From assembly GCA_964016885.1 (NCBI GenBank), contig OZ024743.1:70990001-71054000 (forward strand): a stretch of 64,000 bases of DNA. Reading direction: 5' to 3'. The notes beneath the pieces were generated by a model. It was not told the DNA's origin. It saw nothing but the letters and a program-made list of their open reading frames with translations, and made no database searches. The translations under genes were made by a program, and so were the position numbers. The DNA comes from Eledone cirrhosa (Eukaryota). Each line of letters opens with the position of its first letter. The first letter of the stretch is position 1. This document shows positions 24,532 to 63,630 of this stretch, in pieces.

Positions 24532-26071
24532 TGTGTATGCATATTTTCGATATTTTCTATTTCATATTCAGAAAAACTCTTTGGTCGTAAGTGTAAAGCT
24601 CCAATTCTGCATGTTTCCTCCTCCTCCTCTTCCTCCTACTGTATCAGTTTGGACATGTTTGACCCTTCCCTGACCATCCATTCCTATCTCTCTCTACCCA
24701 CCCTAATATCTTACACCCCCACCACTCTTCGTAGATTTAGAGTTTGGTTTGTTCTCTCTCATTCTCTCTCTCATTCATTCTATGCATCGTTTATATTTCA
24801 TCATCTCATATTTCACACTAAACTGGGTGTTGTGTTATTTGTAAGTGAATTGTGCGTTTGGGTATTGTTTACCTGCACAACATTGCACCTATATATAATA
24901 TGCATATATATATATATATATAGGAAAAAGTATGACCCCGACGGCAGAGCTCAAGCCGTTTCGACGGCTATTTCTGGACTCCGTCGAAACGGCTTGAGCT
25001 CTGCCATCGGGGTCATACTTTTTCCTATTTCCCACTCTACTACCCTAAGTATTGAGTACTTTGGTGTGTTATGGTCCATCTGGTTCCTTACCACAATTCC
25101 TTTGTTTTATATATATATATGTATATATATATATATGTGTGTGTGTATGTATGTATGTATGTATATATATATGTAAGAGTGAACCTACAGTAAATGCATG
25201 TTACACTTCCTAGATATATGTACTTATATATATATATATATATATATATATATATATATATATATACACACACACATATGTATGTATATGTATTTTATTT
25301 CATCAAGAACTGGGTTTTACAGAACTAGTTCTGTTTCATTCGGTGATGAAACCATGAGGGGCTTTCTGATGATTTCATCCCTGAATAAAACAGAACTACT
25401 TCTGTAAAAGTTGGCTCTCAATGATATGAAATAAAATACACTCTTCTCCTTGGTATATTTAGTTCATTGTGGCTCCCTTCCATTCTTTAACAGAACATCT
25501 TACGATTATATATATATATAAATGTATGCATATATTCATATCTATTTACACACACACACATACACACACACACATATATACATATATGTATGTATATATA
25601 TATATATATATATATATATATATATATAGGTTTAGGAATAACCAAAGAGTGCTTAGAAATACATTGTTTTATTAGCTAACAGTGTTTCATCCATACCCTA
25701 TAGCAGGAATCACCAGAGCATATATTACCAAGGGCAATATATCTGTGTGTCTTGGCACATTGATATATTTGTCAACGAAACTATATATATATATATTTAT
25801 TTATTTATATTTATATATATATGTGTGTGTGTGTGGGTGTAAAGAAGGTGTGGTAAGATACCAGGTGGACCATAAGGCACCAGAGTACTCAATACTTAGG
25901 GCAATAGAGTGGGTAATAGGAAAAGAGCCACCAATACTGGTGGCTTAATTCAGATCTAGCTGTTGAAACAGTTGGAGCTCACCCATCGGGGCCCTGATAA
26001 TTTTCCTATATATATATATATATATATATATATATATATATATATATATATATATATATATATATATATAT

Positions 26072-26395
26072 GGAAGCACATGGCTTAGTGGCTAGAGCAT
26101 TGGCCTTGCAATCGAAAGGTTGTGAGTTCAATTCTCAGACCGGGTGATGTGTTGTTTCCTTGGGCAAGACACTTTATTTCACATTGCTCCAGTTTACTCA
26201 GCTGTAGAAATGAGATGATAAGGACTGGGGGCCCTATCATTCCACTGCAAAGTGGTCGTAAAAAAGCACCCAGTGCTCACTGTAAATGAGTTTGGTGTTA
26301 AGAAGGGCATCCAGCTGTAGAAATCAAGCCAGAATCAGTTCCCGTCCCACCCTTGCAAGCAGGGATAAAGCGGACGTAAAATGAAATGAATGAGA
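26072..26395 (+). mobile_element. SINE family B copy
   Basis: near-identical to 8171-8508, flanked by (TA)n on both sides. Confidence 0.9.
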
Positions 26396-27159
26396 ATGAA
26401 TATATATATATATATATATATATATATATATATATATATATATATATATATGTATAGATAGATAGATAGATGATGATATATATATAATATTAGTATATGT
26501 TCTGATTGCCCAGTCTGGTCTGCTTTGACCTATGTGACAATGAAAATTTGCTTGATTTAAAAACAAAATCTTTATTGGGTGAACATGTCCAAAAAAAATG
26601 TTTGTCTTGAAAATTATTATTATTATTATTATTATTATTATTATTATTATTATTATTATTATTGTTATTGTTATTATTATTGCTGTTGTTGTTGATGTTG
26701 TTACTGTAGATTTGTTATAGTCTTGCTCTGCCCTGCAAATATTTTGGTGTTAAATTTTCTTCATATATATTTGTATATTATTCATGTACCTATCAAACCC
26801 TCTCTGCATCCAATGTATTTTGTTTTAAAATTTTGTATCGTTTAATTGCCAAATTCTTGTTTCTATTCTTTTTCTTGTTTACTTATTTTACAACTAGTTT
26901 TGTTATCTTGTAAGCCATGTTTGTCTGTAAAACCCTTTCTATATAACAGTTTGCATTGTTTTATATTAGATCAATGTTGTTGTATATTGGTTCAATATGG
27001 TTTTATATTGGTTCATTATTGTTTCATATTGGTTCAACATGGTTTTATGTTAAATCAATATTGTTTTATATCAATTTCTTCTTGTTTTATTTATTTTATT
27101 TCAGCCTATGCCCCTTCTGATTCTATTATATTGGTGTTATTACAGCTCTACTTCATATG

Positions 27160-27720
27160 TTACAGCCCTGTTACAAACCTATCACAGTTGTTTCATATGT
27201 GTCACAACCTGTGATACATTGCTGTCACATATATGTTACTGTGATGTTACATATGTGTCACAGCTGTACCATATGTGTCATAACCTGCAACACATTGCTG
27301 ACAAACACGTCACAAGCTTGTTACATACTTTTCACAGCTGTACCATATGTGTCACAACTTGTGACACATTGCTGACAAACATGTCACAACCCTGTTACAT
27401 ACTTTTCACAGATGTACCATGTGTCACAACCCATGATACACATGTCATAGTTCTGTTACTTACTTGCCACATTTGTTTTATAGTGTCACAACCTGTGATA
27501 CATTACTGTCACAAAGATGTTGTAGTCCTGTTATCTACTTATCCAGTTCTACATGTGACAACCTGTGATACATTACTATCACAGCCATGTTACATACATG
27601 TCCCAGCTCTACATGAGATACATTGCTGTCACATCCCTGTTACATACTTGTCACAGTTCTACATGTGACACATCACTGTCACAACACACACACATGTCAC
27701 AGCTTTGTAACATACTTTTA
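27160..27720. repeat. degenerate minisatellite (tgtcacaacctgtgatacattgct)
   Basis: recurrent tgtcaca/tgtgaca/tgttaca words. Confidence 0.7.
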
Positions 27721-29174
27721 ATAGTTCTCCCGCATGTGTCTCAACCTCTGACCCAATACTGTCCTACCAACCTCATAATCCTGATACAGAGTTTTATATT
27801 TGTTCAACATGGTTTATATTCTTCATATATCTGTCAAACATTAAAAAAAAATATTATTTGCTGTTTGAATGCAACAGATATCCATTTTGTAATAAGTATT
27901 ATATTTAACATAATAAATAATGTATGGGTTATTACATTACACACACACACAGGTATATATATATGTATATATATGTGTGTGTGTGTCTGTATACACACCT
28001 ACTGACTGATCACCATATGTTCTATAATGAATACAGTATGATGTATATATATATATGTAAGTATATATATATATATATATTTATTTTTTCTAAGTAGTAT
28101 AGTGCTTAATCATTTAAAATTTGTTATAAATATGTTATAAATACTATGGTAGCCGTAGAAAACCTGCCAGACAGTCCTATACAAGCGAGACATGGTCACC
28201 CAACCAATCTTGCCTCAAGTAGGACAATTCCCGTCTAAACCCATGCTAGCATGGAAGATAGAGGTTAAACGATGATGATGATGACGATATATATACATAT
28301 ATACACACAAGTACTTAATGATATATATATATATATATATTAGTTTAGGGAGGTTTTTTATATGAAATCGTGTGTCGAAACAAATATTGTTATACTTGGG
28401 GAGGGTCATATTTGTGTAATATTGCCAGAAAAAATGGCGTAGACATACAACACAACAGGAGGAAAAAATATAACACCACTGACGATGTTGCAGATGTGCA
28501 ACGAAAGATTTATGTAAATTATGTAAGCTATATATATGTGTTTGTGTCTATATTGTATCTGTATTATTTTTGACCGTCGGTCAGTCAATGGCAACATTGA
28601 GGACCGATTAAGTTAGATCGCAGATATAAAAGACAGCGAGAAGCGAAAACCAACCAAACAGTGAGTGTGTTCTGTTATTAATTCTGGCAATATTACACAA
28701 ATATGACCCACCCCAAGTATAACTATATATATATATATATATATATATATATATATCATAAGTACTTGTATGTATATATATATAATATATATATCATTAG
28801 TACTTGTATGTGTGTATATATATATATATATATATATATGATAAATAGTTGTGTAAAAGTTAATCTCATGTCAATGTCAACTATTTTTTACCTTAAAATT
28901 TGAACTACATTGTATTAGCACTGCTTCACTGGAAGTCTATTCAGTATTTAGTTATACCATTAGATGTATTATACAATGGAGGACTTACATGTTGCCATCA
29001 CATGGAAGTAACTCTCATGCCTTATAGGGATTTACATGGAGAAATGTGTATTAAGATATATTTTCAGTCAAACAATTGTTTTTATATCATATCTGGTTTT
29101 GCTTAATTAATCACTTCTTTCTAGTATAATTAATATCTTTTTGCTAATTGCATAAACTTTTCATACCATTTCAG

Positions 29175-62546: not shown

Positions 62547-62829
62547 TGGGATAACAAGTTATCGTTTCAGGTAATCAAATTAGAGGTTGTGAGTACTCTG
62601 TACTATGGATAGTTTTAACATCGAGTGATTAGCGGCCTTTAGACTCACCTGATCAATGAAACAATTGTTAATACTGTAAATAAAACCCTTTTTGTATAGC
62701 CGATCATGTTATTCTTCACTCTTTCACAACATATATATATATTTGCAAAAGTTCTATTTAAATTGTTGGGATACAACAAGCAAATATTTTTATAACTGAT
62801 ATAAAGCACTCGACAAGTATTTGGAGTAA

Positions 62830-63300
62830 ATATACAATATTAACAAATGGAAACTATATTTATAAAACCATATCTATTTTACTATACATATTTCAAGGAT
62901 ACCATGTTAAATTATGGTATGCTTTCATCAGACAAAATACAATATATACCAGTTTTATAAATAAATTTTGACATACCCTTTCAAAATGCAACCGTTACTT
63001 TTGGAAGACATCAGGGATATTGGATTTGTTTATCTTAGTAAGTCATTGTGTTATGGAGAAGGAAAAACCTTCTCCATAACACAATGACTTACTAAGATAA
63101 ACAAATCCAATATCCCTGATGTCTTCCAAAAGTAACGGTTGCATTTTGAAAGGGTATGTCAAAATTTATTTATAAAACTGGTATATATTGTATTTTGTCT
63201 GATGAAAGCATACCATAATTTAACATGGTATCCTTGAAATATGTATAGTAAAATAGATATGGTTTTATAAATATAGTTTCCATTTGTTAATATCGTATAT
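62830..63300. repeat. near-perfect palindrome, about 233-bp arms, AAAAA loop
   Basis: gagaagg-aaaaa-ccttctc centre at 63065; one mismatch seen near outer end; abuts (TA)n. Confidence 0.95.
63191..63255 (+). ncRNA. hammerhead ribozyme motif in right arm of long palindrome (mirror copy 62875-62939, minus)
   Basis: TATTTTGT-CTGATGA-AAGcATACCAT/ATGGTATcCTT-GAA-ATATGTAT-A-GTAAAATA; stem III quasi-palindromic with GU pairs. Confidence 0.6.
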
Positions 63301-63389
63301 ATATATATATATTTAGTTATGTAATAAACAACATAAGATAATTATTTCATTTATTTCATTTAAATATTTAATAAATACACTGTTTTTCA

Positions 63390-63450
63390 TTCATTCTGAC
63401 GACTGAAGACAGACACAGCATCTGTCTTCAAGAAACCACTGGTAAATGGA
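63390..63450 (+). ncRNA. type I hammerhead ribozyme motif
   Basis: TTCATT-CTGACGA-c-TGAAGACAGA/TCTGTCTTCA-a-GAA-ACCACTGGT-A-AATGGA: 6-bp stem I, 10-bp stem II, GUA cleavage triplet at 63442-63444. Confidence 0.75.
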
Positions 63451-63630
63451 ATAATTATCTTATGTTGTTTATTACATAACTAATAAGCTCTGTAGCCTAC
63501 ATATAGCACTCTTTTTTCCTGTACCTTTCTGACGGAAATACTTCATTTATATATATATAGAATAGAAAATGAAAAATCAGTGATGCATCTGAACTCAATT
63601 TATTGTGTGTTACAATTGTTTCCCCGGCAG

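Follow-up and report, generated by a model that had tools for sequence, protein, structure and literature searches.

Fold-back elements in introns of a Fat-type cadherin gene of Eledone cirrhosa as probable head-to-head pairs of Penelope-like pLTR ends

Insertions of endonuclease-containing (EN+) Penelope-like elements are described as bearing an inverted, 5'-truncated pseudo-long terminal repeat (pLTR), with a palindrome at the junction and an optional tail (PMC3846280; PMC8557442). How the inverted pLTRs and the one-sided tails are made is presented as an open question (PMC8557442; PMC11167929). Dual hammerhead ribozymes on opposite strands, 100-700 bp apart, have also been reported (PMC4209133). 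We analysed a stretch of 64,000 nucleotides (nt) of the Eledone cirrhosa genome, hereafter the window (assembly GCA_964016885.1, 3.0 Gb; contig OZ024743.1, positions 70,990,001-71,054,000). It contains ten short fold-back elements, E1 to E10, all located in introns of a Fat-type cadherin gene. Our reading, to which we assign a probability of about three in four, is that these hairpins are coding-free, head-to-head pairs of 5'-truncated pLTR ends from several Penelope families, each likely resulting from one insertion primed on both strands of a TA repeat.

Comparison with described systems

The fold-backs resemble published EN+ Penelope insertions in their head-to-head pLTRs, their tail at one end, their AT-rich or (TA)n targets and the hammerhead in the pLTR. 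They differ in that both copies are cut to 40-240 nt, without coding sequence and in thousands per family, and in their tails of 46-98 nt, compared with 30-40 nt as published. With the minimal hammerheads of metazoan Penelope elements (PMC4209133) they share the CUGANGA/GAAA core, the palindromic stem III, a U3-A8 variant and a dispersal in thousands of copies. Several families here show a U-U or C-A mismatch closing stem II and one reads CAGAAGA; the ends of the pairs are analysed here, unlike in that paper. The Hydra clade, reported to insert in (TA)n (PMC8557442), agrees in its protein motifs and in its target; the units measured here span 4.1 and 4.6 kb, against 'generally <3 kb', which is given there as a tendency.

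In vitro, a Penelope-like protein, that of the Poseidon element PAc of Anolis carolinensis, cleaves AT-rich DNA on both strands and extends each of them. It initiates reverse transcription at two internal positions, which mark the limits of the tail, takes RNA that has not been cleaved as template and is predicted to be a dimer (PMC11167929). The insertions considered here would be alike in the two start sites, the use of both strands and the uncleaved template. PAc belongs to another clade, its start site does not differ between strands, and inverted pairs are not addressed in that report.

Non-LTR retrozymes (bioRxiv 10.64898/2026.07.22.740005) are likewise coding-free, pLTR-related and equipped with a type I hammerhead, but they form head-to-tail tandems, whereas single head-to-head pairs are found here. 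The retrozyme nature considered in the preliminary description of this sequence is not supported: the elements contain no tandem units and only 8 same-strand neighbours were counted among 400 listed matches (see below). A retrozyme-like 310-nt hammerhead tandem, with three units and one inverted unit, does occur on the same contig about 54 kb past the window end (L224). In L1 twin priming, two target nicks each prime a cDNA, giving an inverted 5' part and a microhomology joint; the L1 parts cover different stretches of the RNA, whereas both arms cover the same stretch here.

Our literature search, in which subscription papers were sparsely covered, returned no account of double priming with one start site per arm, of run-off at a pLTR start or of these families; the supplements of PMC8557442 may already list cephalopod families. 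The architecture is known, and the mechanistic detail given here is useful but is detail that we infer. With short copies numbering in the tens of thousands, a single genome provides a large natural record of the insertion reaction, in which each arm of a pair takes one of two 3' ends, the 5' ends are independent and pLTR transcription starts are probably mapped. On this basis, the existing in vitro system can be used to test double priming against self-priming. In annotation, such hairpins can pass for microRNA (miRNA) precursors or for miniature inverted-repeat transposable elements (MITEs).

Orientation, parents and ends of the fold-back elements

The preliminary description had listed about ten inverted repeats, and all ten were located at the coordinates given there. 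The pairing between arms ranged from 32/45 to 190/190, perfect hairpins measured 100-470 nt, and the introns hold roughly one hairpin per 4-6 kb. Each element was longer than first reported: a family-specific tail of 46-98 nt, carried by one arm only (10/10), extends to a second TA tract, and this tail was seen in other family copies for nine of the ten elements (all but E2). Hammerhead residues are given in the standard numbering (C3U, G12 etc.). The elements, listed without strand, are:

E1, 24920..25107: inverted arms 24920-25028, tail 25029-25107; Hydra-like pLTR stub. The fold centre lies inside hammerhead loop II, and the parent's U3-A8 core is therefore absent.
E2, 25290..25506: arms 25290-25440, tail to 25506; old relative of E4. 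Stem III is a perfect palindrome on the - strand; the core on the + strand carries G12A (AAAAC in place of GAAAC).
E3, 38417..38638: left tail 38417-38501, arms 38502-38638; family core CAGAAGA.
E4, 41497..41697: arms 41497-41635, tail to 41697; Hydra-like pLTR stub, core TTGATGA (C3U).
E5, 47011..47208: arms 47011-47144, tail to 47208; eroded hammerhead, AAAAC replacing GAAAC behind an intact core.
E6, 57987..58315: left tail 57987-58084, arms 58085-58315; eroded hammerhead with long stem II.
E7, 59764..60200: near-perfect palindrome of 391 nt, tail 60155-60200; Neptune-like pLTR stub. Complete hammerheads at 60001 (+) and 59917 (-).
E8, 60226..60439: old arms 60226-60360, followed by a tail; of the family hammerhead, the 3' half alone is present. 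The arms fold back downstream of the core, which is therefore missing; a TTGAGGA within 60226-60360 is the antisense of loop II and no core.
E9, 62743..63300: left tail 62743-62829, near-perfect palindrome of 471 nt; Hydra-like pLTR stub. Complete hammerheads at 63199 (+) and 62931 (-).
E10, 63313..63547: short left arm, long right arm, tail 63484-63547; Hydra-like pLTR stub. Complete hammerhead at 63396 (+), in the long right arm.

The arms comprise nine unrelated sequences, in keeping with their first description as mostly unrelated, apart from E2 and E4, which are 71-75% identical, and E3, which has a relative at 61300-61486 in the window. With at least two Penelope clades represented, they do not constitute the single dispersed family that had been proposed. 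The tail-less end directly abuts (TA)4 in 7/10 elements; in two others it is separated from it by 12 nt and 23 nt, and no (TA)4 was found within 165 nt of the tail-less end of E5. Docking in (TA)n is thus supported, with direct contact less general than the 'nearly all' first stated.

Hammerhead content was scored on the arms by searching for a half-hammerhead, formed by GAAA, stem III and UH, and compared with 500 shuffles. The half-hammerhead pointed outward in 10/10 elements and inward in 1/10; shuffled arms gave a mean of 3.0 outward half-hammerheads and a maximum of 8, never 10. Consistently with the first description, the 3' end of the core is directed outward. A full type I descriptor gave 6 matches in the window against 0.03 per shuffle (60 shuffles). 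Four of these matches fall in E7 and E9, one per strand in each; a fifth is on the + strand of E10, and the sixth is a solo copy at 48772 (-). Intact or eroded cores had been attributed to most elements; all ten retain a half-hammerhead, but the complete motif exists only in 3/10 (E7, E9 and E10), the other seven being partial, with E1 and E8 devoid of core. In 219 loci retrieved by family queries, 169 unique type I hammerheads were called, against 0 in the shuffle, and 74 had a perfect stem III palindrome, in agreement with the minimal hammerhead first recognised. Rfam yielded no hammerhead family, only miRNA-like hairpin matches, among the best 150 of 275 matches.

Some variants deserve mention. 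Outside the fold-backs, the solo hammerhead at 48772 (-), which passes the descriptor, has a stem III of two bases, and those at 10268 (-) and 6199 (+) are eroded. In the E3 family, copies reaching the core read CAGAAGA for CTGANGA, a fixed U4A variant (26 family arms in the loci). The parent hammerhead of the E1 family (L089, L128, L185) has a U3-A8 core, which reads TTGATAA in three of the four copies seen; its loop II is long and includes both a TATTTAA box and an initiator-like TCAGT/TTAGT site. Because box and initiator-like site sit in loop II, the E1-family transcript likely starts inside its own ribozyme.

Five of the ten arms were traced to pLTRs of Penelope-like elements encoding a reverse transcriptase (RT) and a GIY-YIG-type endonuclease, four of them Hydra-like (E1, E4, E9, E10) and one Neptune-like (E7). 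The Penelope pLTR origin put forward in the preliminary description is supported by these five, and we hold a Penelope origin of the hairpins to be almost certain. The E7 arm is 98% identical to the end of elements in three loci (L105, where this end is the 3' pLTR, L117 and L129). The open reading frame (ORF) of this parent matches Pfam RVT_1 and GIY-YIG and contains DKG, GxKF, a CX2-5CxxC linker and a cysteine pair within GIY-YIG (L105, L129), motifs that suggest a Neptune or Nematis type, the two being taken together here. For E9, arm and tail share 98-99% identity with each of the two pLTRs of a full-length element (L126, L127) that carries an inverted stub at its 5' end. The E1 arm and tail are 90% identical to the pLTR of the coding element L257, in which the tail continues into a long ORF; the E10 tail continues into an ORF with RWK and DKT in L309. 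The E4 parent was recovered in pieces only: the E4 tail leads into a Hydra-like N-terminus in L056 and the E4 arm follows a Hydra-like endonuclease in L219. A GIY-YIG ORF in L043, considered as a candidate E4 parent, was dropped as belonging to another family with its own hammerhead.

The Hydra-clade motifs RWK/RWR, DKT, CxCX5C, no CC pair in GIY-YIG and C-terminal CxxC plus CxH were found in L256/L257 and L126/L127. The E4 parent is 40-41% identical to the E9 parent, and the E1 parent has Atlas look-alikes with RVT_1 and GIY-YIG. The Hydra-like ORF pieces gave no Pfam match, and a solved-structure search with the E1 parent RT gave none. The assignment to Hydra is therefore a putative one, based on the motifs of PMC8557442, on the 40% identity between two parents and on the Atlas look-alikes. 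The units measured 4.07 kb (L126) and 4.63 kb (L309/L310) from pLTR to pLTR. Exact matches to 25-33-mers numbered 7,245 for E7, 1,712 for E9, 4,375 for E4, 16,594 for the E1 tail and 3,014 for E10 in the genome, and reversed controls gave 0 matches.

The geometry of neighbouring copies was determined with four family patterns, using the first 100 listed matches of each (400 of 16,346), all on contig C1, and neighbours at most 5 kb apart. Among these 400 matches, 60 neighbours were head-to-head, 2 tail-to-tail and 8 on the same strand (p=8e-16), so that 60/62 opposite-strand neighbours were head-to-head, as the preliminary description had proposed. In the loci retrieved by family queries, 67/149 scorable hammerheads had a head-to-head partner and 4 a tail-to-tail one. 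Cores above shuffle level, arms derived from pLTRs rather than from terminal inverted repeats of DNA transposons, and a non-random orientation were thus obtained. Inverted pLTRs with a tail were also found at full-length, ORF-bearing copies (L126, L129, L256/L257).

Each family has two sharp 3' ends, one at the TA site and one at the tail end, and the arms of a pair generally take one each: among 64 pairs with gaps of at most 120 nt, 59 combined a TA end and a tail end, 4 two TA ends and 1 two tail ends. From 30 position-ordered E1 tails, 18 had an inverted partner ending at or before the first end (two of them doubtful), 2 had a tailed partner and 10 had none. A looser de novo census of fold-backs (n=275) gave 103 TA plus tail, 34 TA plus TA, 9 tail plus tail and 129 unclassified. 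The 5' ends of the two arms are independent. In 50 pairs with one TA end and one tail end, it was the tail arm that extended further 5' in 16 cases and the TA arm in 20 cases, and the two ended within 2 nt of each other in 14; the TA arm exceeds the tail arm by up to about 190 nt. Junctions consisted of overlaps of 1-14 nt or of short fillers, and 52/55 junction combinations were distinct.

Several junctions and tails had additional features. T/A runs of up to about 17 nt, probably due to slippage or untemplated addition, separate the arms in three E1-family loci (L144, L196, L152), and in L153-L156 two long, tailed copies of the E7 family meet head-to-head at short pLTR stubs to form an 8.6-kb palindrome. 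A short RCTC...GAGY stem occurs a few bases past the first 3' end in unrelated families, in 8/27 tail clusters against 0.26 in shuffles. It is present in the tails of E1, E3, E4, E8, E9 and E10, with an A-T closing pair in E1, E4, E8 and E9 and a G-C pair in E3 and E10, and absent from the E7 family. L126 has a second copy past the end of the tail, and both of its tail-hairpin segments fold weakly, at -3.0 and -2.0 kcal/mol, the second in a structure other than the one drawn for it.

The 5' starts of the arms were compared with promoter-like boxes. In E1, 27/38 arm starts fall within 7 nt, 24-30 nt past the TATTTAA box and around TCAGT/TTAGT. In E4, 19/38 fall within 7 nt, 30-38 nt past TATA boxes. 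For E7, 4/16 paired arms, or 14/35 arms by hand count, start within 11 nt, 30-40 nt past TATATAA, and E9 and E10 showed no arm-start cluster. As background, a box is found 24-34 nt upstream of only 4-9% of reference positions. The clusters probably represent run-off at the 5' end of the RNA. Comparable signals, TATA plus initiator, have been reported in a rotifer pLTR (PMC3846280), and the Penelope promoter of Drosophila virilis is internal and TATA-less (PMC2377424). A TATA-spaced start guessed by eye for E10, and one for E9, were not supported on counting. The position of E7, E9 and E10 5' ends near the cleavage site was not retained as proof of in vivo cleavage, as these ends coincide with natural palindromes. 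A sequencing-run search with the E7-family pLTR gave no RNA run among those listed and is uninformative on expression.

Formation of the pairs and alternative explanations

We consider double priming to be the probable main route. The element protein would nick both strands of a (TA)n tract; one nick would prime cDNA synthesis at the first start site of the RNA and the other at the second, 46-98 nt beyond. Both cDNAs would be antisense, grow inward from the two flanks and meet head-to-head; they would halt early or run off the 5' end of the RNA and be joined by microhomology or a few filler bases. Antisense cDNAs growing inward would place the antisense arm first on either strand with no need for selection, the use of one start site per arm would leave a single tail, and independent stopping would yield arms of unequal length. 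The hammerhead would be present because the stretch from the likely start of pLTR transcription to the two priming sites includes it. The variable junctions, together with the fact that either arm may be the longer, fit priming on both target strands.

Several observations weigh against this reading. In the retrieved loci, 78/149 scorable hammerheads had no detected partner arm, so that insertions with one arm only, or with a very short partner, are frequent. The one-tail rule is broken by 5/64 pairs, and the in vitro start site is alike on both strands (PMC11167929), so that the one-site-per-arm rule is not accounted for by that work. The target-site duplications of variable length expected of EN+ insertions are unreadable within (TA)n. 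Only E1 and E4 show the TATA-linked 5' cluster clearly; E7 shows it more weakly, and E9 and E10 lack it. For E2, E3, E5, E6 and E8, the retrieved loci yielded no parent ORF. Finally, the 14/50 near-symmetric junctions, E7 and E9 included, suit fold-back self-priming equally well.

In this last process, favoured in PMC3846280, one cDNA would snap back at its 3' end and be copied, and the endonuclease would resolve the product. Besides the pairs whose 5' ends agree within 2 nt, it would account for the many junction loops of 0-5 nt or placed on natural palindromes such as stem III, and for the almost perfect hairpins of E7 and E9. However, a snap-back copy can neither reach further 5' than its template nor acquire a tail that the template lacks, and the tail-less arm is the longer one in 20/50 pairs. 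We therefore find self-priming unlikely as the general origin, although it could explain the symmetric subset.

An extension of double priming would give stem III a role. Its palindrome could be a dimerisation signal of the RNA, holding two pLTR transcripts for a dimeric RT-endonuclease that would prime both (TA)n strands, one per start site marked by the RCTC...GAGY stem; the fold of the ribozyme would in that case be of use to integration even in copies unable to cleave. E1-type stubs, which begin within the ribozyme and lack the core, keep stem III, which favours the idea. Many partner arms nevertheless begin downstream of stem III, and Naiad elements, which have no canonical hammerhead, are described as making these inverted structures too (PMC8557442), which makes the proposal distinctly doubtful.

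The preliminary description also suggested that the upstream antisense arm silences the ribozyme, head-to-head copies being therefore enriched or kept in genes. The gene concerned is:

Host gene, 1..64000, + strand: Fat-type cadherin; the window lies wholly inside the gene and E1-E10 are all intronic.

Among named proteins, its nearest homologue is the Fat 1-like protein of a gastropod. The window contains cadherin, laminin-G, EGF and cytoplasmic exons; cadherin exons extend at least 20.4 kb upstream of it and the last exon lies 28.5 kb downstream. The computed folding energy is -64 to -374 kcal/mol for whole hairpins, whereas the hammerhead segment by itself reaches -5 to -15 kcal/mol. In the mapped 114 kb of the Fat gene, four of the five intact sense-strand hammerheads sit in fold-backs, and together with the one solo sense and two solo antisense motifs they are too few for a test. 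Xenopus introns are depleted of tandem retrozymes (bioRxiv 10.64898/2026.07.22.740005), so that selection against active forms may exist.

Selected silencing is nevertheless very unlikely. One intact sense hammerhead, situated 17.9 kb upstream of the window in an intron of the Fat gene, has no partner within 1.5 kb. Cores were intact in 26/30 paired and 43/47 solo arms (p=0.70), in a small comparison, made without gene annotation, where 43/120 loci had no scorable core and both arms of a pair may count. Moreover, 7/10 elements have no complete motif, and E1-type stubs never had a core. In vitro, cleavage by a lone minimal hammerhead was undetectable (PMC4209133), and the hammerhead of the anole element depended on its protein (PMC11167929). 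The antisense-first order is true of any head-to-head palindrome, needs no selection, and also exists at the ORF-bearing insertions (L126, L129, L256/L257). Once transcribed as part of the host pre-mRNA, the arms would pair with each other, with the ribozyme probably inert; judging from the computed energies, this thermodynamic masking is likely a by-product of the hairpin. The elements themselves are most likely neutral by-products. Mismatches in the ten hairpins, read on the Fat sense strand, comprised 14 G-T and 7 A-C (p=0.19), indicating neither structure selection nor an editing scar. Such intronic hairpins could feed RNA editing or small-RNA pathways.

Mobility of the palindromes themselves, as TA-targeting MITE-like DNA elements or as whole-copied non-autonomous palindromic RNAs, would suit their short, coding-free, TA-flanked and very abundant nature and the recurrence of junction positions in E1 and E4, but is hardly credible and largely refuted, since the arms are retroelement pLTRs, the ends are asymmetric with one tail, and the junctions vary as if each pair had been built anew.

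Other features of the window

The window has a GC content of 35% and abundant (TA)n tracts. An ORF at 6018-6326 gave no Pfam match. At 40168-40961, a 25/27-nt minisatellite contains many CTGA(A/G)GA motifs without the remaining hammerhead parts. A further fold-back at 3321-3549, with 58-nt arms, is of different origin: it is made of a tRNA-like short interspersed nuclear element around (TA)n and contains no hammerhead. Two RT remnants resembling those of long interspersed nuclear elements are located at 16830-17636 and 32606-34039.

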